Assembly: GCA_903879715.1 (NCBI GenBank)
Contig: CAIRMR010000153.1
Location: 3,026-67,025, forward strand
From: an uncultured Bacteroidales bacterium
Lineage (GTDB): Bacteria > Bacteroidota > Bacteroidia > Bacteroidales > UBA4417
Direction: 5' to 3'
Length of the DNA stretch: 64,000 nucleotides
How positions within the stretch are numbered: the stretch's first letter is position 1; each line of letters begins with the position of its first letter. This document shows positions 43,218-54,268 of the stretch, piece by piece. A model generated the notes under the pieces. That model saw only the letters and a list, made by a program, of their open reading frames with translations, was not told the origin of the DNA and ran no database searches. Both the position numbers and the translations under genes were made by a program.

Positions 43218-45371
43218 ATGAAAAAAATCACTCTTGTCATTCTGACGCTTTTATCCGTAATTACCTTCCAGAGTCGTGCTGACGAAGGCATGTGGCTGCC
43301 TTTATTTGTTCAGCGTCTCAATTATGTGGATATGCAAAAAGAAGGCCTACATCTCACGGCTGAAGAAATATACAGTATCAACCATTCCAGTCTTAAAGAC
43401 GCAATTATCATTTTCGCTGGTGGCTGTACCGGTGAAATTGTATCGCCTAATGGTTTGATTTTCACAAATCACCACTGCGGTTATGGCTCAATCCAATCAC
43501 ACAGCACGGTTGATCACGATTACCTGAGCGATGGATTCTGGGCAACCCGCTACGAGGAAGAATTACCTACTCCCGGTTTAAGAGCCAGTTTCCTTGTAAG
43601 CATTCAGGATGTAACTGCAGTTGTACTTGCTGGAGTTTCGAGTTCGATGACGGAGGCTCAAAGGGCTGATAAAATTAAGGAGAATTCAAAAAAAATTGAG
43701 GCTGAAAATACCAAAGGAACCCAATACGACGCGCGTACAACAGCTTTTTTTAACGGTAACGAATATTACCTTTTCCTGTATGAAGTTTATAAAGACGTAA
43801 GGCTTGTTGGAGCACCACCTACCTCCATTGGCAAATTCGGCGCCGATACCGATAACTGGATGTGGCCCAGGCATACAGGTGATTTCTCGGTTTTCAGGGT
43901 ATACGCCAGCAAGGAAAATAAACCTGCTGAATACGCTGCCGAAAATGTTCCTATGAAGTCAAAGCAATTTCTGCCTGTATCGATTAAAGAAAAAAAGAAA
44001 GGCGATTTTGCCATGATTATGGGCTATCCGGGCCGAACAACCCGTTATGCAACTTCAACTGCCATCAAGTTTGCTTTGGAGAAAAACAATCCTATGGTTG
44101 TGAAAATACGTACCCAAAAACTTGATATCCTTCGCGAAGACATGGCGGCTGATGCCGCTGTTCGTATAAAATACGCTGCTAAATTTGCAGGATCGGCAAA
44201 TTATTGGAAATATTATATTGGCCAGAGTAAAGGACTGAAACAACTGGGTGTATACGACAGGAAAAAAGAACTTGAGGATCAGTTTGTAAAATGGATCAGT
44301 ACGGATAAAGATCGCACCGCTACATACGGTGAAGCATTAAATGATATCTCTCAGGCCTACGAAACCTTAAATAAATACGAAGCTCCCGTACGTTACAATG
44401 CTGAAGCTATTATGCAGGGTTGTGAAATTATCGCTTTTTCAAGGAATTTTAACAAACTGGCCGAAGAACTTGCCAAGCCAAAACCTGATCAGAAAATCGT
44501 TAAAACCTTAACCAAACAGGTTACCGAAGCATCCGGAAAATATTTCAAGGACTACAATAAAGCTACTGATGTTAAAATGCTGGCTGCCATGCTGCAACTG
44601 TATTACCACGATGTTCCCAAAGAAATGCAGCCTGATTACCTCGGGAAGATTTATAAAAAATACAAAGGAGATTTTGCCGCCTATGCCAGTGAAGTCTTCA
44701 ATAAAACCAATTTCAGCGATACTACGAAAGTAAAATTATTTCTTTCAAATCTCAAATTGAAATCCTTACAAAAAGATCCGGCATGGATTTTATACAAGGC
44801 TTTCAGTGCCAACTCAGGCCTTATCGATAGTTTGGTAAAACCTTCCAACGAATTGCTCGCTAAAGGAAACAGGTTATTTATGCAAGGCCTGCGCGAAATG
44901 CAAAGCGACAAGACTTTTTATCCTGATGCCAACAGCACCATGCGATTAACTTATGGCCAGGTGCTTGACTACAGCCCGGCCGATGGCATTGATTACAATT
45001 ATGTAACTACCCTTGATGGTGTCATGGCAAAAGAAGATCCTTCGAACCCTGAATTCGTGGTATCTGAAAAACTTAAACAATTATACAAATCGAAAGATTA
45101 TGGCCGCTACGGCGAAAATGGCAAAATGGTGGTTGGTTTCCTGACCAACAACGATATTACCGGAGGAAACTCTGGCAGCCCGGTATTAAATGGTGATGGC
45201 GAACTTATCGGGCTTGCTTTCGACGGAAACTGGGAAGCCATGAGTGGAAATTATGCTTTCGAGCCTAAACTTCAGCGTACGATCTGTGTTGATATACGGT
45301 ATGTTCTTTTTGTAATAGATAAATATGCCGGTGCCACCAATCTTATTAATGAGCTCGACATACGTAATTAA
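43218..45371 (+). CDS. S46 family dipeptidyl-peptidase (DPP7/DPP11-like)
   Basis: 717 aa with a signal peptide followed by DEGMWLP. Catalytic blocks are TNHHCG (His) and GGNSGSPV (Ser). Confidence 0.9.
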   Translation: MKKITLVILTLLSVITFQSRADEGMWLPLFVQRLNYVDMQKEGLHLTAEEIYSINHSSLKDAIIIFAGGCTGEIVSPNGLIFTNHHCGYGSIQSHSTVDHDYLSDGFWATRYEEELPTPGLRASFLVSIQDVTAVVLAGVSSSMTEAQRADKIKENSKKIEAENTKGTQYDARTTAFFNGNEYYLFLYEVYKDVRLVGAPPTSIGKFGADTDNWMWPRHTGDFSVFRVYASKENKPAEYAAENVPMKSKQFLPVSIKEKKKGDFAMIMGYPGRTTRYATSTAIKFALEKNNPMVVKIRTQKLDILREDMAADAAVRIKYAAKFAGSANYWKYYIGQSKGLKQLGVYDRKKELEDQFVKWISTDKDRTATYGEALNDISQAYETLNKYEAPVRYNAEAIMQGCEIIAFSRNFNKLAEELAKPKPDQKIVKTLTKQVTEASGKYFKDYNKATDVKMLAAMLQLYYHDVPKEMQPDYLGKIYKKYKGDFAAYASEVFNKTNFSDTTKVKLFLSNLKLKSLQKDPAWILYKAFSANSGLIDSLVKPSNELLAKGNRLFMQGLREMQSDKTFYPDANSTMRLTYGQVLDYSPADGIDYNYVTTLDGVMAKEDPSNPEFVVSEKLKQLYKSKDYGRYGENGKMVVGFLTNNDITGGNSGSPVLNGDGELIGLAFDGNWEAMSGNYAFEPKLQRTICVDIRYVLFVIDKYAGATNLINELDIRN

Positions 45372-45411
45372 CTGATTTCCATAATTTTTAAAAAACATCA
45401 TTCAAATTAAA

Positions 45412-46620
45412 ATGAAAATCCGAATCTTTAAATTAGCATTTCTATCATTCTTCATACTGGTTGTTTTCACTTCATGTAATACTGATACCATTGACGTTAC
45501 GCCACAATTTCTGCGTTGCGGGAATAGCCTGGTTTTGTCTGAAAATGGCAATCTGGTTATCGCCGGTTATAACACATCCTCTTCAACAGGGTATGACGCA
45601 GTTCTGATGATGAGAAAAACTGATGGTGATACTGCTACTGCCTGGACCAAGTCATTTGGAGGATCTTATTCAGATGCGTTCTATTGTGTTAAAAATTCAA
45701 ATGAAGGTGGATTTATTGCCGCTGGTTTTACTAACAAGGCTAGTGTTGGTTCACCTGCCATGTTTGTGGTAATAACAGATGAAAACGGCAAATTGAAAAA
45801 TACGAAAACTTACCAGTTTGCTGCTGCTTCACAGGGCTTCAGTGTGATATCAGCCAATGCCGATAGCGGATATCTTGTTGCCGGCGTTGTTCAAAATACC
45901 AGTAGCTCCGACCGCGATATTTACCTGGTTCGGATAAAGGAATACGGAGACACATTATGGACAAAACGACTGGGCGCAAAAAGTGCCAGTCAGTACGACA
46001 TGGTTAATGATGCCGCATACTCGGTAATTGCCGCGCCGGCTCCAGATTCCGGGTATTACATTACGGGATCATTGAACGGATACTCCCAGTATGGGGGTAA
46101 AATTTTTCTTATGAAAGTTTCGGCTGAAGGTGACAGCCTGTGGACAAAAACATACGGTACCGGTATCGGATTTTCATTAACGCTTACCAAGGATAATGGA
46201 ATAGCCATTAGTGGTTCTTTGCAGGAAGGAAGCAGCCAGGATGTTTTCCTCCTAAAGACAAATCTGGATGGAGAAGCTCTATGGTCATATTCTTATGGGG
46301 GTTCCGGTTTCGAATATGGTGCAAATATGATTGAAACTTCCGATGGCGGATTTGCCATAGCGGGAATTACCGATAGTAAAGGCTATGGTAATCAGGATGT
46401 GTGCCTTCTGCTCACCAATTCTTTTGGTATTGGCTCCTGGGATCAGGTAAAAACCTATGGTATGACTGATAATGATCAGGGCTTTGGCCTGGTTGAGATG
46501 CCAGACAAGGGATTCAGTATAACCGGGCTTTCCAACTCAGGTGGGAGCTATATCTTCCTGAATCGCGTTCAAAGTGATGGAACCCCGGGTACAGTGGGAT
46601 GGGAAAAATATATTGAATAA
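45412..46620 (+). CDS. Lipoprotein with about 6-7 degenerate repeats of about 50 aa (beta-propeller-like), function unknown
   Basis: 402 aa with lipobox VFTSCNTD. The pattern D(I/V)(Y/F)L(V/M/L)K...G(D/E)xLW(T/S)K..G recurs. Confidence 0.7.
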   Translation: MKIRIFKLAFLSFFILVVFTSCNTDTIDVTPQFLRCGNSLVLSENGNLVIAGYNTSSSTGYDAVLMMRKTDGDTATAWTKSFGGSYSDAFYCVKNSNEGGFIAAGFTNKASVGSPAMFVVITDENGKLKNTKTYQFAAASQGFSVISANADSGYLVAGVVQNTSSSDRDIYLVRIKEYGDTLWTKRLGAKSASQYDMVNDAAYSVIAAPAPDSGYYITGSLNGYSQYGGKIFLMKVSAEGDSLWTKTYGTGIGFSLTLTKDNGIAISGSLQEGSSQDVFLLKTNLDGEALWSYSYGGSGFEYGANMIETSDGGFAIAGITDSKGYGNQDVCLLLTNSFGIGSWDQVKTYGMTDNDQGFGLVEMPDKGFSITGLSNSGGSYIFLNRVQSDGTPGTVGWEKYIE

Positions 46621-46665
46621 TATCCGCATAAAATCTGACTGTATTGCATTTCAGGCAATGTGAAG

Positions 46666-46708
46666 TGAAAGAAAGAGGCTGTTTCCTTGAGAAACAGCCT
46701 CTTTCTTT
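46666..46708 (+). terminator. Rho-independent-type terminator after the repeat lipoprotein gene
   Basis: gaaagaaagaggctgtttc (46666-46684), loop cttga, then gaaacagcctctttctttc (46690-46708): a perfect 19-bp stem followed by a T-rich tract. Confidence 0.75.
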
Positions 46709-47172
46709 CGTATTTGTTTGAATATTTTCTGTTAAACATATCAAGTGTCTATTTGTTATATTTGCGCATATAGCACAAGGCTTTTGCTAAAATGGCACAT
46801 AATTACCATTGCAATGTCTTCGCTCTGATCAGCAATACTCCAATCAGTAATTAAATTGATTTTTTTCAATTTTAAACAATTTTTCTTCGATCTGTACCAC
46901 GCTTTCCGTTTATAATTTGTTCTATACTGAACCTAATCAGAAATATCAGTGTATCAATAAACCAATAGATGAAGATAAATCAATATTTTTGTAAAAATGT
47001 AGTGTTCCGGAACAGGGTTATAGGATAAATATGCCAGTAACAGTGACAAAAACACTTTCGTCGTCTGCATAAAAAATACAATTCAGTATTACTATGTGAG
47101 GATGAAGCTAATACAAAATCACTGAACATTTTCGACCAATAGTGAGCATCCATCAAATATGAGGAGAAACCC

Positions 47173-50100
47173 ATGATTCAGATTAAGAGCACAATTATGC
47201 CAGTAACAGGCTTAACCTGCACAAATTGCGCATCTACAATCGAGGAGAAAGTCCGCAAACTTCCAGGCGTTATTGATGCTAATGTTGATTTTGCAAGCGA
47301 AAAGCTTTCCGTTAAATTTGATCCAACTCAGCTTGCGGAGAATGATATTGTTTCGATAGTGAGTAAAATTGGATATGGTGTTGCTACCGGTAAAATCGAT
47401 TTACCTGTCACCGGTCTTCAGGATAATAACGATGCCTTATCGCTGGAAAAAATTCTGAGTAAGCAGAATGGTGTACTTAAAGCTATTGTAGGCTATGGCA
47501 CCGAACGGGCTATGCTTGAATATATTCCGGGAGTTACAAGTATAGCTGAACTTGCTGCTGTCATTCGTAAGGCAGGGTTCGATATTGTTCAGGCCAGCGA
47601 TGCGGAAGAAATTGAAGATGTTGAAGCCGCTGTGCGTGCTTCGGAACTTAAAAAACAAAAGAATCTGTTGATAACCGGCCTCACATTTACGATTCCGCTT
47701 ATCATGTACAGCATGGCTCGCGACTTCAGTGTCGTGGGATTCAACTATGATCAATATGCTATGCTTTTTGCGGCTACTATAGTTCAGTTTGTTGTAGGGT
47801 GGCATTTTTATATCGGTGCTTATAAAATTTTGCGTTACGGCAGTGCCAATATGGATGTCTTAATCGCGATGGGCTCGTCAGTTGCGTATTTTTCCAGCCT
47901 GCTGGTAACCGTTGGTATTATCAACAGCCCGCATGTTTATTTCGAAACAGGAGCTGCAATCATTACACTGATCAGGCTTGGAAAATACCTGGAAGCAAGA
48001 GCAAAAGGCAAAACATCCGAAGCGCTTAAAGCATTGATGGGATTACGCGCCAAGACGGCTACCGTTTTACGTGATGGCCGGGAAATCGAAATCAACGTTG
48101 ACGAAGTTGTAGTTGGCGATATTGTTCTTGTTCGACCCGGAGGCAAAATACCTGTCGACGGAATTATTATCGAAGGCCATTCGGCTCTTGATGAATCTAT
48201 GATTACAGGTGAGTCGATGCCGGTTAGCAAAGGACCTGGCAATGAAGTTATTGGTGCCACTATTAACCGTGAAGGATTGATCCGCTTCGAAGCTACCAAG
48301 GTTGGCAAGAATACAACACTTTCGCAGATTGTTAGGCTTGTGCAGGAAGCACAGTCGAGCAAAGCACCCATACAGAAGCTTACAGATGAAATTGGCAGAT
48401 ATTTTGTCCCAATTATCATTGGTATAGCACTTTTCACATTTTTTGGCTGGGTATATGTAGCTCAGATTGACTGGACCGGGGCTATGATTAATGCCATTGC
48501 TGTGCTGGTAATAGCCTGCCCTTGCGCAATAGGTCTGGCAACGCCAACAGCAATCATTGTCGGTACTTCAAAGGGCGCTGAAAATGGTATTTTATTCAAA
48601 AGCAGCGAAATGCTGGAGCGTGCCGGGAAAATAAACATAGTAGTATTTGATAAAACCGGAACTCTGACTAAAGGAGAACCGACAGTAACAGATATAATTG
48701 CCCTGGATGGTCTTACAGCAAATGCGGTTCTTCAGCAGGCTGCCAGTGCCGAGCGTGGATCTGAGCACCCTCTGGGTCGTGCGCTCGTAAAAGCTGCCCT
48801 TGAAAAAGGCTTGACTCTTATAAATCCAAAACAATTTCGTGCATTTGGTGGTTCAGGAATAAGGGCTGTAGTGGATGATCAATCAGTCGTTATTGGAAAC
48901 CTGCGCATGATGCAGAATGAAAAAATTGACATTGAAGAGTTTCAGGATGATGTTCAGCGGTTGCAATCCGCAGGTAAAACAGCTATGATTGTAGCCTGCA
49001 AACCAGTTAATAGTACTGAGCCTGCCCGGCCCATCGGAATAATTGCTGTTGCTGATACCGTTAAATCCGGAGCCAAAGAGGCGATTCATGATTTACGCCT
49101 GCTTGGAATGGATATAGTAATGATTACCGGTGATAATCAAAGTACAGCCGAAGCTATTGCCCGACAGCTGGGAATTAGTACTGTTCTGGCTGAAGTATTG
49201 CCCGGTGAAAAGGCAAATGCAATAAAAAAACTACAGGAAAAAGGCAGCATGGGTAATTTTGCTCATCCCGTGGTAGCAATGGTGGGCGATGGTATTAATG
49301 ACGCACCGGCGCTGGCACAAGCAGATGTGGGAATTGCTATAGGAACCGGAACTGATATTGCGATGGCTGCCGCCGGAATAACACTCATCAGCGGGGATCT
49401 TTCAGGCGTGGGCCGTGCTATTTCCTTGTCACGTGGCACCTCTCAAACCATTGTACAGAATCTTATCTGGGCTTTGTTTTATAATGTTGCTCTTATCCCG
49501 ATAGCGGCTTATGGTATGCTTAGTCCTATGTTTGCAGCAGGTGCGATGGCTTTCAGCTCAATTTTTGTTATTACCAACAGCCTTCGTTTAAAATCCTTCA
49601 AAGTACAGACTTTTGCTCCGCCCAAATCAATTCTGAGACAGGCCCTATCGCTAATACCACGAATTATCGCTCCGGCCGTTGCGCTGGCAATTCTTATTAT
49701 TGGCCCTATGGTTTTTATGCCTGGTGCAAATATGGAAATAAAAGGCGCAAATCCAGGTTCAATGTCACCCTTACTAATGATGGTAATGGCTCTGTCGAAT
49801 GCGTTGATAGCGATATCCTATGCTTCTATTCCCTTTTTTCTGATTGTTTTTGTCCGTAAGCGAAAGGACTTGCCATTCACCTGGATAATTTTCCTTTTCG
49901 GACTGTTTATCCTTGCATGTGGAGCAACGCATATCACTCACGTCATTGGTCTTTGGTGGGAAGTGAACTGGTGGCAGGCAAGCTTTGACGCTATTTGTGC
50001 CGTTATTTCAGTAGCCACAGCTGTGGTTGTATGGCCCATACTTCCACGTCTTCTCTCTATTCCCAGCCCAAACCAGTTAAGAATGGTTAATGAGGAATTG

Positions 50101-51762
50101 CAAAAGGAGAAAGATAAACTTGTTTTCACACAAAGTGAACTGCATAAAGCTTACAATGCAATTGAACTACGCGTAAATGAACGTACAGCTGAATTAATGA
50201 TTGCCAATAAGTCGCTCCAGGATGAAGTCAGGATACGTAAAAGAGCTGAGAAATCACTCCGCGAAAGCGAAAATCAATTTAGACGGCTATTCGAAAGTAC
50301 ACCTTTACCCATATGTTATGTCGATTCAGAGGGTAAGATTGTACTCAGAAACGATCGATTTGTAAACACATTTGGATACACCGAAACCGATGTTCCTACA
50401 CTTACAGAATGGTGGATTAAAGCGTATCCTGATGAACAATACCGGCAAAAGGTGAATGATAGCTGGAATGTGGCTGTTGAAAAAGCAGCTGAATCCGGCA
50501 CCGATATTCAATCAGATGTGTATCACGTAACCTGCAAGGATGGCAGTATCCGCGAAATTATTATTTCAGGGACATACATTAATGAAAATTTTCTGGCTAC
50601 TTTTATCGATATAACTGAACGTAAAAAAGCAGAAGAAGCCCTGGCAGTGAGCGAAGAAAAATACCGCTTAATTGCTGATAATACTGACGATTGGGTATAT
50701 TGGATTACACCGGAAGGGAAATTGCGATACATTTCACCATCCTGCGAGCGGGTAACCGGATATACGCCTTCCGAATTTGTCGTTTCTCCAAAATTAATAG
50801 ACGAAATTGTATATACTGAAGACAGGGTCATTCATACGCAGCATGCTGAACTTATTAAAAATAAATTAAGTGCGGAAAGCCTGGAATTCCGTATAATAAC
50901 CAAAACCGGGGAAATTTGCTGGATAAGTCATTCATGCGGTCCAATCTATACCCAGGAGGGTATTTTTGCAGGGCGTAAAGCGACAAACCGCAACATCACG
51001 CAACGGAAAAAAGCTGAAGAAGATATAAAAATCCTTAATTCAGAACTTGAACATCGAGTAATACAACGCACTGAACAGTTTGTAGCAGCCAATAAAGAAC
51101 TCGAAGCATTCTCCTATTCCGTTTCTCACGACTTACGGGCTCCCTTGCGGCATATCAGTGGATTTATCGGACTTTTCCTCGAAAACAAATCATCGGAATT
51201 AACTAAGGAAGAGCTTGGATACCTCAATGTTGTAGTTCAATCCTCCGAAGAGATGGGAAAACTTATTGACGCACTGCTCTCATTTTCGAAGCTTAACCGC
51301 TCCGAACTTCACAAAGAACGAATTGATACCCCGCAGATAATAAAAAGGGTTTTACAACTCTTTGAGCCGGAAATTCAGTCAAGGTCTATTGAAATAAAAG
51401 TTGATGTACTTCCCGAATCGAAGGCTGATCAGCAACTTCTCAACCAGGTGTGGATTAACCTGGTTTCAAATGCCATTAAATACACCGGCAAAAAAGAAAA
51501 AGCTATCATCGAAATCGGTAGTTTTGGCGCTGATAAAGAAACTATATTCTTTATCAAAGACAATGGTGCCGGATTTAACATGAAATATGCGGAAAAATTG
51601 TTTACTGTATTTCAGCGTCTTCACAAATCCCGCGATTTTGAAGGAATAGGGATCGGGCTGGCAAACATCCAGCGTATTGTTGTACGCCATGGTGGCCGTT
51701 GCTGGGCTGAAGGCGAGATTAACAAAGGCGCAACCTTTTATTTTAGTTTACCCAACGAATAA
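47173..51762 (+). CDS. Fusion protein: Cu(I)-translocating P1B-type ATPase (CopA-like) + ETR1-like ethylene-binding/Cu(I)-cofactor membrane domain + 2 PAS + histidine kinase
   Basis: A single 1529-codon frame with no stop. ATPase motifs are CTNC (HMA), ITGES, CPC, DKTGT, SEHPLG and GDGINDAP. These are followed by ...[16 protein letters not shown]...[16 protein letters not shown]... (EBD-like), a coiled coil, two PAS domains, the H-box [11 protein letters not shown], an N-box [16 protein letters not shown] and GIGIGLA. Confidence 0.85.
47194..47388 (+). other. Domain: heavy-metal-associated (HMA) domain 1 with an intact CxxC
   Basis: [25 protein letters not shown]... Confidence 0.85.
47395..47592 (+). 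other. Domain: HMA-like domain 2, metal-binding cysteines absent
   Basis: [25 protein letters not shown]... has the HMA fold pattern, but the CxxC position reads DNND. Confidence 0.6.
49662..49720 (+). other. Domain: single bridging transmembrane helix between the ATPase TM8 and the EBD-like module
   Basis: A hydrophobic stretch [19 protein letters not shown] follows the ATPase C-terminal [10 protein letters not shown] polar loop [13 protein letters not shown] follows it. Confidence 0.6.
49761..50085 (+). other. Domain: ETR1/SynEtr1-like ethylene-binding domain (three TM helices; Cys/His Cu(I) ligands in helix 2)
   Basis: [106 protein letters not shown]. The Cys codon is at 49918-49920 and the His codon at 49930-49932. 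Confidence 0.75.
50270..51000 (+). other. Domains: two PAS/PAC modules
   Basis: [24 protein letters not shown]...[12 protein letters not shown] and [25 protein letters not shown]...[12 protein letters not shown]. Confidence 0.8.
51100..51759 (+). other. Domains: HisKA + HATPase_c catalytic core
   Basis: [16 protein letters not shown] (His codon at 51127-51129), [31 protein letters not shown]. Confidence 0.9.
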
Positions 51763-51792: not shown

Positions 51793-52230
51793 ATGGAAAC
51801 TACCATCAAAAATATTCTTTTGGTCGACGACAGCGCCAATGATGTGATCCTTATCAAATCCGCATTGAAGAATGCGCACTTTGGCAACGAAATTATTGTG
51901 GCTGAAGATGGAGAAGAAGCTATTGGTTTTTTATACAAACGGGGGAAATTCGCTGATTATTCAGGCGGAATGCCGGTTTTTATTCTACTGGATATTAAAT
52001 TACCTTTGATGAACGGCATCGAAGTATTGAAGGTAATTCGTTCCGATAAGGCATTTAAGCATATTCCCGTGATTATGCTTACTTCTTCACGCGACACTCT
52101 CGATCTGAAGGAGTGCTATGACAATGGGGCCAATTCGTTCGTAGTAAAACCGGTGAATATAAACGACTTTATGCTGGTAGTTAAAGAATTGGGGCAATAC
52201 TGGGTGGTAATAAATGAAATACCGTCATAA
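51793..52230 (+). CDS. Stand-alone receiver-domain response regulator (CheY/Rcp1-like, no output domain)
   Basis: 145 aa: ILLVDDSANDV, phospho-Asp context FILLDIKLPLMNG, TSS, and K in VVKPV. Confidence 0.9.
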   Translation: METTIKNILLVDDSANDVILIKSALKNAHFGNEIIVAEDGEEAIGFLYKRGKFADYSGGMPVFILLDIKLPLMNGIEVLKVIRSDKAFKHIPVIMLTSSRDTLDLKECYDNGANSFVVKPVNINDFMLVVKELGQYWVVINEIPS

Positions 52231-52285: not shown

Positions 52286-54268
52286 ATGGAAAGCATAATT
52301 CAGCTACTTCATCTCGAAGATAACCCTACAGACTCACTGTTGGTACAGTCGTTGCTGAAAAAGGCTAATGTCCGCTTCAACTATTTCTTTGCCGATAATG
52401 AAGAAGATTACCTTTTCATACTCAGAAACCATACAATCGATCTGATTTTATCCGATTACCACTTGCCTTCTTATTCAGGTGCCGAAGCGCTGTTGTTTGC
52501 AAGAAGAAATTATCCCAATATCCCGTTTGTGTTTTTAAGCGGAACGATGGGAGAGGATGCAGCCATTGAATCACTTTTAAACGGAGCTACTGATTATGTG
52601 CTCAAAAACAAAATGGAAAGGCTTATCCCGGCTGTTTATCGTGCTTACAAAGAAGCCCAGGAAACCAAAGCCCGGCAAAAAGCTGAAGATGAACTCCGGA
52701 AATTATCACGGGCTGTTGAGCAGAGCCCAAATTCGGTTGTGATCACCGATACGGAAGGCAGAATTGAATATGCAAATCCGGCAACACTTAAACTGACCGG
52801 TTATACCAGTGAAGAAGCAATGGGAAAAAATCCAAGGATATTTAGTACTCACGAAAAAACCAGGGAAGAATATGATTTTTTATGGGAAACTATCCAATCA
52901 GGAAAAGAATGGAAAGGGGAGTTTCACAATAAAAAGAAAGATGGGGAACTGTATTGGGAATCTGCTTCAATATCTCCTATTTTAAACGAAAATGGCGTTA
53001 TAACTCATTACCTTGCCATAAAGAAAGACATTACTGAAAGTAAACAGCTTACTACAGACCTTATCAATGCTAAAGAAAAGGCAGAAGAAAGCGATCGTTT
53101 AAAAACAGCTTTTCTTGCGAATATGAGTCATGAAATACGAACACCTATGAATGGTATCCTGGGTTTTGCCGCTCTTCTCAAAGAACCTGATCTGTCTGGT
53201 TCTCAGCAACAGGAATATATCAGGATTATAGAGAAAAGTGGTGCCCGTATGCTCAATATTATCAATGATATTATAAGTATTTCAAAATTAGAATCAGGTC
53301 AGACAAACCTTCTGTATTCCGAAATAAATGTAAATGAACTGGTTAAAGACTTGCATGATTTTTTTAGACCTGAGGCTCAGCAGAAAGGATTATATTTATA
53401 TCTTAAAAATTCATTGCCCGACAGTAAGGCAATAATCACGACAGATAAAGAAAAACTTACTGCTGTTTTAACCAACCTGATTAAAAACGCTGTTAAATTT
53501 ACTAAACAAGGCTCCATTACCATTGGTTATAAATTGAACCCATCCAAGCTATTGAATGAAGATGGAACGTTAGTTGAACCAGATGTACTAGAGTTTTTTG
53601 TAAAAGATACTGGTGTTGGCATTAGCCAGGAAAATAAGGGGATTGTTTTTGAGCGGTTCCGGCAAGGAAGTGAATCTCTGACCAGAAACTATGAAGGTGC
53701 TGGTTTGGGATTATCGATTTCGAAAGCATATGTGGAACTATTAGGGGGTAAAATCTGGTTTGAATCCAATCCTGAAGTTAACTCGGGAGAAAACGGGTCG
53801 GTTTTCTTTTTCTCGATTCCTTATTTACCTGTCCTGGAAAAACATGATACCATTACAAACACTAAACTTAACCTGAAAAGCATCGACATGATAAAACCTA
53901 TTAAAATTCTCATCAGTGAAGACGATGAAACATCGGATTTGCTGATTGCAATTATGTTACGAAAATTTAATACCGAAATCCTGCATGCGAAAACCGGAAT
54001 TGAAGTTTTAGGGATATTACAGGAAAACCCTGATATCGATATGATCCTTATGGATATTCAGATGCCTGAAATGAACGGATATGAAGCAACCAGGGAAATA
54101 CGAAAGTTTAATACGGATATAGTAATAGTTGCACAAACAGCTTACTCACTTTCAGGAGAACGCGAAAAGGCCATGGCTGCCGGATGCAACGATTATTTTG
54201 CTAAACCTATTGATCAGAATATGTTGAATGATGTTATCATGAAGTATTTTAATGAAAAAACTGTTTGA
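52286..54268 (+). CDS. Hybrid sensor kinase: REC - PAS - HisKA - HATPase - REC
   Basis: 660 aa: N-terminal receiver (LILSDYHLPSYSG), PAS (RAVEQSPNSVVITDTEGRIEYANPA...), H-box MSHEIRTPMNGI, HATPase (LIKNAVKFT, KDTGVGI, GAGLGLSI) and C-terminal receiver (ILMDIQMPEMNG). Confidence 0.9.
   Translation: MESIIQLLHLEDNPTDSLLVQSLLKKANVRFNYFFADNEEDYLFILRNHTIDLILSDYHLPSYSGAEALLFARRNYPNIPFVFLSGTMGEDAAIESLLNGATDYVLKNKMERLIPAVYRAYKEAQETKARQKAEDELRKLSRAVEQSPNSVVITDTEGRIEYANPATLKLTGYTSEEAMGKNPRIFSTHEKTREEYDFLWETIQSGKEWKGEFHNKKKDGELYWESASISPILNENGVITHYLAIKKDITESKQLTTDLINAKEKAEESDRLKTAFLANMSHEIRTPMNGILGFAALLKEPDLSGSQQQEYIRIIEKSGARMLNIINDIISISKLESGQTNLLYSEINVNELVKDLHDFFRPEAQQKGLYLYLKNSLPDSKAIITTDKEKLTAVLTNLIKNAVKFTKQGSITIGYKLNPSKLLNEDGTLVEPDVLEFFVKDTGVGISQENKGIVFERFRQGSESLTRNYEGAGLGLSISKAYVELLGGKIWFESNPEVNSGENGSVFFFSIPYLPVLEKHDTITNTKLNLKSIDMIKPIKILISEDDETSDLLIAIMLRKFNTEILHAKTGIEVLGILQENPDIDMILMDIQMPEMNGYEATREIRKFNTDIVIVAQTAYSLSGEREKAMAAGCNDYFAKPIDQNMLNDVIMKYFNEKTV

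Follow-up and report, generated by a model that had tools for sequence, protein, structure and literature searches.

The stretch of DNA analysed here (hereafter the window) comprises 64,000 nucleotides of contig CAIRMR010000153.1 from an uncultured Bacteroidales bacterium and encodes, in a single gene, a protein of 1529 residues in which a Cu(I)-exporting P1B-type ATPase is joined to an ethylene-binding domain (EBD), related to that of the plant ethylene receptor ETR1, and to a histidine kinase. All modules of this protein represent known families; the combination of pump, EBD, and kinase is undescribed, and it is both real and recurrent. The parts of the fusion gene, with their positions in the window, are as follows.

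47173..51762, + strand: whole fusion open reading frame, 1529 aa, zero internal stops
47203..47376, + strand: N-terminal HMA domain (PF00403, 65 bits), residues 11-68; GLTCTNC as Cu(I)-binding motif
47395..47592, + strand: putative second HMA-like domain, residues ~75-140, assigned from the beta-alpha pattern of the AF2 model and the family consensus
47620..49608, + strand: P1B-1 Cu(I)-ATPase core, residues ~150-812, with helices MA, MB, and M1-M6 and the A, P, and N domains
49609..49650, + strand: predicted cytoplasmic linker from M6 to the anchor helix, residues 813-826 (14 residues, conservation 0.72)
49651..49719, + strand: anchor or adaptor transmembrane (TM) helix, residues 827-849, from a hydropathy scan and AF2 secondary structure
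49762..49788, + strand: Met-rich segment M864-S-P-L-L-M-M-V-M872, leading into EBD helix 1 on its periplasmic side
49774..50061, + strand: EBD of the type termed B below, residues 868-963, three TM helices, Pfam ETR1_N
50068..50259, + strand: long signalling helix or coiled coil from EBD to PAS, residues 966-1029, AF2 pLDDT ~82-85
50272..51000, + strand: two PAS domains, residues ~1034-1155 and 1162-1276, Pfam
51103..51756, + strand: histidine-kinase core, HisKA at residues 1311-1375 and HATPase_c at residues 1419-1528

One reading frame from copper pump to kinase

The preliminary description of this DNA, drawn up from the letters alone, had claimed a stop-free frame of 1529 codons joining pump, helix, EBD, and kinase, and both the open reading frame (ORF) and the Pfam matches bear this out: an HMA domain, a P1B-1 Cu(I) ATPase, the anchor helix, the EBD, a coiled coil, two PAS domains, and a HisKA/HATPase_c core succeed one another in that order. 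Each motif quoted there also lies where it had been placed in the fusion protein—CTNC at residue 16, TGES at 345, CPC at 449, DKTGT at 493, SEHP at 530, GDGINDAP at 705, and CGATH at 916-920.

Judged by its sequence, the pump half is a CopA-type P1B-1 Cu(I) exporter with a complete set of catalytic motifs. Pfam places E1-E2_ATPase at residues 291-470 and a HAD-type Hydrolase at residues 487-718 of the fusion protein, and two NCBIfam models exceed their cutoffs, TIGR01511 (copper-translocating P-type ATPase; residues 209-807) with 576 bits against 397 and TIGR01525 with 637 bits against 346. The pump sequence aligns with the CopA of A. fulgidus (3J09) at E = 1.9e-175, and Foldseek, run on the predicted model, returned ATP7B (E = 4e-51) and the Legionella pneumophila CopA 4BBJ (target TM-score 0.79). 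Family hidden Markov models (HMMs) and the match to a Cu(I)-pump fold thus agree with the earlier assignment of residues 1-805 to a P1B-type ATPase. The Cu(I) selectivity signature, defined for P1B-1 pumps in the Arguello classification, is complete, with CPC(x6)P at residue 449, N(x6)YN(x4)P at 763, and M(x2)SS(x5)N at 792.

Constraint on the pump is evident across the family. CPC(x6)P, N(x6)YN(x4)P, M(x2)SS, DKTGT, and GDGxNDxP are each intact in all 43 genome copies, as is the GxxCxxC of the HMA domain, and TGES is found in 40 of them. Within-family conservation is highest in M5-M6 (0.95) and M3-M4 (0.91) of the pump and in EBD helices 1 (0.89) and 2 (0.88); lower values (0.68-0.77) were obtained for the coiled coil, the HMA domains, and the P/N domains. 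These values bear on the idea that the pump is a relic, a decayed half that serves as a mere membrane anchor or scaffold for an ordinary EBD kinase. That the fusion can decay is shown by truncated and degenerate relatives (see below), but the selectivity, catalytic, and HMA motifs are preserved as just described, M5-M6 is the most conserved segment of all, and the decayed forms lose the EBD/kinase half rather than the pump; we regard a relic pump as very improbable.

Residues ~75-140, which show the pattern of a second HMA-like domain, received no separate match in the Pfam scan of the fusion protein. GLQDNNDA here replaces GMTCxxC, so that the Cys pair is lost, and this form is kept family-wide. 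At the other end of the protein, HisKA scores 39.8 bits and HATPase_c 73.2 bits, and the H-box SHDLRAPL begins at residue 1318.

Since the gene sits on a JGI metagenome contig, and a few relatives look frameshifted or internally deleted (L048, P0008, P0006/P0007), an assembly chimera or a hidden frameshift that merges two genes had to be considered. Several results speak against such an artefact. The identical 1529-aa protein is encoded on a second, independently assembled Logan contig. When residues 741-1029, the junction segment, were searched for in prokaryotic genomes, each species being represented by one, they were recovered end-to-end at 64-96% identity in ~47 species-level genomes, among them closed or multi-megabase long-read assemblies (OY762227.1, OW818699.1, OW818649.1, OY761615.1, CAXXMN010000001.1, and JACAUB010000001.1); the corresponding ORFs measure 1225-2451 aa and all carry CPC, DKTGT, and the Cys-x3-His of the EBD. 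The same order of domains recurs in more than 120 protein clusters, and the best 120 clusters from a collection of 5.8 billion proteins combine HMA, ATPase, and ETR1_N without exception (120/120), at 68-99% identity over residues 1-1030. The linker and the anchor helix are themselves conserved. We therefore reject the artefact, whose probability we consider negligible. The preliminary description had advised confirming the junction (49.55-49.80 kb) with raw reads or PCR and searching genome databases for the same domain order; the second assembly, the ~47 genomes, and the closed chromosomes among them settle the first point independently of raw reads, and the recurrence in genomes and clusters answers the second. 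One of the relatives, L048, is itself probably frameshifted.

All of these proteins appear to form one family. Searched exhaustively with HMMER for the junction segment, 1.84 billion representatives yielded 19 whole-junction clusters at 50% clustering, each at least 57% identical to the query, and the top 150 matches held no EBD behind a pump of a different lineage. This floor of identity indicates a single family rather than recurrent convergence, and no independent second fusion in another lineage was seen among those matches. Identities in the family alignment range from 57 to 99%. Where database entries are named at all, the names are "heavy metal translocating P-type ATPase" or "Cu+-exporting ATPase".

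The ethylene-binding domain and its place in the membrane

The Pfam model ETR1_N (PF25487, "Ethylene receptor 1-like, N-terminal domain") matches the fusion protein over positions 2-97 of its 97, scoring 104 bits on the intact protein and 109.9 bits on the EBD segment cut out of it (cutoff 27); relatives score 102-110 bits. This full-length match, far above the cutoff, vindicates the reading of residues ~860-975 as an ethylene-receptor N-terminal domain in the preliminary description. That description had further proposed a position-for-position likeness to ETR1. The alignment is indeed ungapped through TM1-TM2 of ETR1, and all the residues then quoted are present: Tyr32, Ile35, Pro36, Pro50, Trp53, Phe58, Gly59, Ile62, Cys65, and His69 are kept, as is Thr68. 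The Pfam model confirms the match independently. In fusion numbering, Tyr883 corresponds to Tyr32, Ile886/Pro887 to Ile35/Pro36, Ile913 to Ile62, Cys916 to Cys65, His920 to His69, and Pro958 to Pro110. What the earlier comparison had missed are three departures from ETR1, namely Asn876 in place of Asp25, Asp939 in place of Lys91, and an extra His923 at position 72.

The copper-ligand pair equivalent to Cys65/His69 is found in 118 of the 120 clusters, whereas the surroundings of this site have changed. Seven residues are required for ethylene binding in ETR1—Asp25, Tyr32, Ile35, Pro36, Ile62, Cys65, and His69 (PMC11819568)—and six of them are kept in the fusion, the exception being Asp25. Asn at position 25 is invariant in the fusion family, and the Asp25-Lys91 polar bridge is absent, with Asn876/Asp939 in its place.

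A comparison of 267 EBDs separates two kinds. Positions 25/91 are occupied by N/D in 151 proteins, by D/K in 105, and by N/K in 2, with no case of D/D; this near-perfect covariation fits the contact predicted between the two residues (PMC10266040). His72 accompanies N/D in 145 of 151 proteins vs none of the 105 with D/K, and the 14-residue lead-in to helix 1 holds on average 3.7 Met in Asn25 EBDs vs 0.19 in Asp25 EBDs. In the fusion family, this lead-in follows the pattern M-S/T-P-x-x-M-M-V-M. The motif H-G-x-C is distributed inversely (104/106 Asp25 proteins vs 9/158 Asn25 proteins), and the stand-alone bacterial EBD kinases found in our first search all have Asp25, Lys91, and an N-terminal PHGxC (28/28). 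On these sequence grounds, the EBD of the fusion is a member of a distinct subtype with a re-wired copper site, which we call type B and in which the PHGxC-type motif is absent. In the canonical bacterial EBD kinases (P0052, P0060-P0064, P0068, and others), the motif takes the form F/M-P-H-G-x-C-Y/L-L-W just before helix 1 (104/106), where it may serve periplasmic copper capture or form a disulfide, analogous to the Cys4/Cys6 region of ETR1.

Asn25 has been reported in 3.67% of 1,221 EBDs, and Asp25 of ETR1 is needed for high-affinity binding of both copper and ethylene (PMC10266040). The ETR1-D25N variant showed minimal copper binding in vitro and undetectable ethylene binding in yeast, yet was functional in planta with an affinity ~100-fold lower (PMC10266040, PMC11971883). 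High-affinity ethylene binding by an EBD with Asn at this position cannot, therefore, simply be assumed; compensation for Asn25 by His72 and Asp91 is speculation.

The extra hydrophobic helix (~827-849) and the three EBD helices noticed in the preliminary description are seen by both hydropathy and AF2, the EBD helices at residues 866-896, 903-925, and 933-961 in the AF2 secondary structure, with hydropathy peaks in agreement. We infer that the chain leaves the last of the eight pump helices on the cytoplasmic side and that the anchor helix, which is very hydrophobic, carries it back to the periplasm, where a short loop connects to the EBD. The EBD helices would then run out-in, in-out, and out-in, placing the N-terminus outside and the C-terminus inside as in ETR1, and the loop after EBD helix 1, RKRKD, fits the positive-inside rule. 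An even number of pump helices, one adaptor helix, and this loop together predict a cytoplasmic location for the long helix 966-1029, the PAS domains, and the kinase. As the adaptor helix restores the orientation of ETR1, it would be a topological adaptor, and the fusion could not work without it.

The AF2 model covers residues 1-1030 and was built from an alignment of 75 sequences; its mean pLDDT is 69.9 and its pTM 0.55, with values of ~73-79 for the EBD helices and ~56-63 for the adaptor helix. A sequence search of the PDB with the EBD gave no homologues at E <= 1, and the ETR1 transmembrane domain, like EBDs in general, is, according to reviews, without an experimental structure (PMC13012798).

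Distribution, variants, and genomic setting

Hosts of the fusion appear, from their records, to be mostly uncultured Bacteroidales/Prolixibacteraceae (Tangfeifania, Mariniphaga), with Ignavibacteriaceae, Chlorobiota, and further groups besides, and their habitats include lakes, groundwater, peat or fen, and bioreactors; six well-sampled clusters contained no cultured isolates. The G+C content at third codon positions (GC3) of the fusion gene ranges from 30 to 83% and tracks the local flanks, being low in Bacteroidales (L012, L004) and high in Desulfuromonadales, Verrucomicrobia, and Victivallis bins (L030, L033, L041, L042, L025), and still the protein remains at least ~65% identical. Such a pairing of adapted composition with conserved protein indicates long residence, horizontal spread, and strong purifying selection, and the agreement with host flanks points to old horizontal transfers rather than binning errors.

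Type-B EBDs also occur in stand-alone kinases that lack a pump (P0262, P0269, P0271, P0272, P0275, and P0278), with EBDs 50-60% identical to the fused one. In these proteins the chain opens with an anchor helix, homologous to that of the fusion, ahead of a Met-rich lead-in of the same kind, which suggests that the C-terminus of a CopA was joined to the pre-existing anchor helix of such a kinase. When the ATPase part only was placed in a neighbour-joining tree, the deepest branches all proved to be fusions (L042, the Verrucomicrobia bin L041, and L037/L038 of Chlorobiota type). The fusion clade also encloses plain CopAs (L058-L060), a kinase-less form with a degenerate EBD (L050; ETR1_N 64.6 bits, His69 lost), internally deleted forms in which EBD helices 1-2 are gone (L051/L052), and pumps that carry two additional helices (L053-L057). 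The nesting of truncated forms provisionally suggests, in a tree without support values, a single origin of the fusion followed by repeated decay of the sensor half.

Across the family, the constant unit is pump, anchor, and EBD, and the region after the EBD is variable: it holds no PAS domain (L044, L049), one or two, PAS plus GAF, or as many as 7-9 PAS domains (L008, L017), and further variants have added receiver domains, HWE-type kinases, or no kinase. A kinase-less class of ~1200 aa (P0148, P0158, P0165, P0174, P0182, P0205, and P0208) consists of pump, EBD, and one PAS domain and ends in a conserved helix motif, '..GRE.R...LK.EVNEL...LG....Y'. Other proteins have lost parts of the pump instead. 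In P0263 the whole ATPase core (MA to M6) is gone, while the two HMA domains and everything from the anchor helix through EBD and PAS to the kinase remain; in P0003 the HMA domain is joined straight to the EBD, and in P0001 the pump helices M3/M4 are joined to the anchor helix. These deletion derivatives, together with P0264, may be real variants or assembly collapses.

In the window, the fusion gene is accompanied by the following features.

46665..46711, + strand: terminator-like hairpin, a perfect 20-bp stem and then a T-run, within the 552-bp gap upstream of the fusion gene
51793..52230, + strand: single-domain response regulator, 145 aa, 31 bp 3' of the fusion gene
52286..54268, + strand: hybrid histidine kinase, 660 aa, REC-PAS-HisKA-HATPase-REC, 56 bp after the receiver gene

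The hairpin would close the upstream gene, so that the fusion gene begins its own transcription unit. A scan of 45-56 kb with Rfam gave no matches, and a scan for sigma-70 promoters, a consensus unsuited to Bacteroidota promoters, found 26 vs 22 expected from shuffles. Upstream, at 43218-46620, lie a gene for an S46-family dipeptidyl-peptidase (717 aa) and one for a 402-aa protein without a Pfam match; this pair stands beside the fusion only in its closest relatives (L003, L004) and thus falls outside the cassette.

The trio of fusion, ~145-aa receiver, and ~650-aa hybrid kinase, all on one strand, is present at most of 44 loci, the other surroundings of which differ. Across these 44 loci there are no conserved copper neighbours (CopZ, Cus/Cop resistance, CueR, or CsoR), and partners limited to signalling, with no copper genes, argue against a copper-resistance regulon. 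In five loci, a CheR-like methyltransferase with the motifs EFFRN and RIWSAACAAGQE is encoded 3-4 genes downstream of the fusion, as a stand-alone protein of ~275 aa in L008 (14297-15130), L034, and L036 and within a 978-aa ORF in L019 and L021.

Pump and EBD kinase as split adjacent genes, a possibility raised in the preliminary description, were not found: of four stand-alone type-B loci inspected, two of them with useful flanks, all four lack a neighbouring pump. Their neighbours are signalling genes, and in L067 the kinase is followed by a 144-aa receiver like that of the fusion. In a single case (L066, 5177-7915), P0269 adjoins a GGDEF gene and a gene of the RuBisCO-large-subunit family (431 aa), the product of which is possibly a RuBisCO-like protein. 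RuBisCO-like proteins take part in methylthio-sugar salvage routes, leading to ethylene in some anaerobes.

This setting bears on the purpose of the copper site. Were the fusion a copper-flux sensor ('transceptor'), there would be no permanent cofactor; instead, the type-B EBD would reversibly bind Cu(I) released by the pump, occupancy of the Cys/His/His site would report the work of the pump and so the cytoplasmic Cu(I) load, and the kinase would yield a transcriptional or behavioural response. The Met-rich lead-in, the extra His, and the lost Asp25/Lys91 pair are typical of Cu(I) trafficking sites, transporter-coupled flux-sensing kinases such as BceAB-BceS are established, and the weak copper binding of ETR1-D25N (PMC10266040) would suit a labile site. 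On the other side, copper-homeostasis genes are not conserved beside the cassette; the partner regulator consists of a lone receiver, where CusRS/CopRS have a DNA-binding regulator of OmpR type; the pocket residues Tyr32, Ile35, Pro36, Phe58, Gly59, Ile62, and Thr68 are nearly invariant; and the large PAS/GAF arrays of many members would be unusual for a simple metal-stress circuit. We consider a flux sensor less likely than not, but the main rival to the interpretation favoured below.

The direction of control could also be reversed, with the EBD/PAS/kinase tail switching Cu(I) export in response to environmental cues. C-terminal regulatory extensions are indeed known from other P-type ATPases, including H+-ATPases and some HMAs, and the pump is retained in kinase-less and truncated members. 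A conserved kinase and H-box followed by a receiver and a hybrid kinase nevertheless imply an outward signalling output, and P0263, P0003, and P0001 drop the pump and keep HMA, EBD, and kinase. As such derivatives exist, the sensor-kinase half seems viable alone, and a signal-regulated pump strikes us as improbable.

Proposed mechanism and comparison with known systems

The interpretation that we favour, with a confidence slightly short of even, is that the fusion is a self-metallating, Cu(I)-dependent membrane sensor kinase, with ethylene or a comparable small molecule as its ligand. It matches the first of the two readings offered in the preliminary description, a self-loading ethylene or olefin receptor; the second, a reporter of Cu(I) on its way through the pump, matches the flux sensor and keeps an appreciable probability. 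In this scheme, the pump would collect cytoplasmic Cu(I) via its HMA domain and CPC site and release it at the periplasmic face, where the Met-rich lead-in M864...M872, as a putative hand-over path, would capture the ion and pass it to the intramembrane Cys916/His920(/His923) site. Loading in cis would keep the sensor supplied with its cofactor even where habitats are anoxic and poor in copper. A small pi-ligand would then bind to the Cu(I) centre, ethylene or another olefin of this kind being most likely and CO or an alkyne possible. The resulting conformational change would reach the kinase by way of helix 3 and the coiled coil, and the kinase, with its PAS inputs, would drive a phosphorelay through the receiver and the hybrid kinase.

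Several observations are consistent with a self-metallating sensor: both halves are intact and constrained, the olefin pocket is conserved beyond its metal ligands, the partner genes are signalling genes only, and inputs and outputs are modular around a constant core of pump and EBD. Others weigh against it. The Asn25/Asp91 re-wiring is one, given how poorly ETR1-D25N binds copper and ethylene (PMC10266040, PMC11971883). Stand-alone type-B kinases, moreover, have no adjacent pump in 4/4 loci, which suggests that delivery in cis is no general requirement of a type-B EBD, and the confidence of the AF2 model is only moderate (pTM 0.55); the proximity of pump exit and EBD is putative.

By analogy, and held as part of the favoured interpretation with the same near-even reserve, the fusion may be a bacterial covalent counterpart of copper delivery from RAN1 to ETR1 in plants. 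RAN1 is required for receptor function and interacts physically with ETR1 (PMC6656775), and the mechanism by which Cu(I) passes from it to the receptor is still called unresolved in a 2026 review (PMC13012798). The widespread and conserved covalent fusion is an independent evolutionary sign that pump and receptor domain form one functional unit. How receptors acquire Cu(I) from RAN1 is a question that has stood since 1999. Somewhat more tentatively, and reading from sequence, we suggest that the fusion could be a natural Rosetta stone for it, in which Cu(I) is handed over directly at the outer face and a second, re-wired class of EBD senses ethylene or another small unsaturated gas in anoxic sediments and groundwater. 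On that reading, this would be the first self-metallating gas receptor, and a rigid, pump-anchored construct for solving both the EBD structure and the copper hand-over path.

The fusion in any case offers a tractable bacterial construct for cryo-EM and in-cis metallation assays, and raises the hypotheses of a Met-rich hand-over segment and of Asn25/His72/Asp91 as an alternative to Asp25/Lys91. The preliminary description knew of no characterised example of this architecture, and our literature search likewise found no description of a pump-EBD fusion, though a passing mention may occur in the survey of Carlew et al. 2020 (Small Methods). Neither a type-B EBD with Asn25/His72/Asp91 nor any EBD from Bacteroidota appears in the literature searched, which included a March 2026 review of receptor structure and a review of ethylene in prokaryotes. 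Published accounts of prokaryotic EBD proteins concern proteobacteria and cyanobacteria and note a variety of output domains (PMC7700396); the present family extends ethylene-receptor-like sensing beyond these groups to anaerobic Bacteroidota, Ignavibacteriota/Chlorobiota, and others. It also exposes a gap in annotation, as hundreds of entries named 'Cu+-exporting ATPase' are sensor kinases.

Among known systems, Arabidopsis RAN1 (HMA7) and ETR1 offer the closest parallel in parts: a P1B-1 pump with N-terminal HMA, a three-helix EBD with Cys65/His69, and export by the pump to the non-cytoplasmic side, where the N-terminus of the EBD lies. They differ in that the fusion is one polypeptide, connected via an adaptor helix, in an anaerobic host of the Bacteroidota type. 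Unlike ETR1, its EBD is of type B, with Asn25/His72/Asp91 and a Met-rich lead-in, the GAF/receiver arrangement of ETR1 is absent, and the downstream pathway is a bacterial phosphorelay.

SynEtr1 (Synechocystis slr1212) and AzoEtr1 (Azospirillum), for both of which ethylene binding is proven (PMC11819568, PMC6682694), resemble the fusion as EBD sensor kinases with PAS or other domains and a partner regulator. Their EBDs, by contrast, are canonical and stand-alone, and pump, anchor helix, and Met-rich lead-in are all absent. Asp35 and Lys98 of AzoEtr1 correspond to Asp25 and Lys91 of ETR1, and the canonical stand-alone relatives all share this D/K pair (105/105). The stand-alone type-B kinases are nearer, since they have the anchor helix, the Met-rich lead-in, Asn25, His72, and Asp91, and differ in lacking the pump.

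On the pump side, the CopAs of A. fulgidus and L. pneumophila are alike in full-length sequence, predicted fold, and all Cu(I) selectivity motifs; CopA, however, ends shortly after M6, whereas the fusion continues for ~720 residues through anchor helix, EBD, PAS, and kinase. ATPases of the CopA2/CcoI(FixI) type are comparable in concept: they are low-flux pumps dedicated not to detoxification but to cofactor delivery to a membrane or periplasmic client, and this client, the cbb3 oxidase, is a separate protein, while the client proposed here is fused to the pump.

As a sensory unit built from a transporter and a histidine kinase, the fusion recalls BceAB-BceS. The kinases of Bce systems lack any built-in sensor domain, are separate polypeptides working with an ABC transporter, and are encoded beside resistance genes; the fusion, in contrast, has its own EBD and PAS inputs, a fused P-type ATPase, and no resistance genes nearby, and so falls outside the Bce type of flux-sensing kinase. 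It likewise departs from CusRS/CopRS, in which a periplasmic sensor domain lies between two TM helices, the regulator is of OmpR type, and cus/cop genes are adjacent: the sensory domain of the fusion is an intramembrane EBD, its partner is a stand-alone receiver, and its neighbourhood is one of signalling genes with no conserved copper genes.

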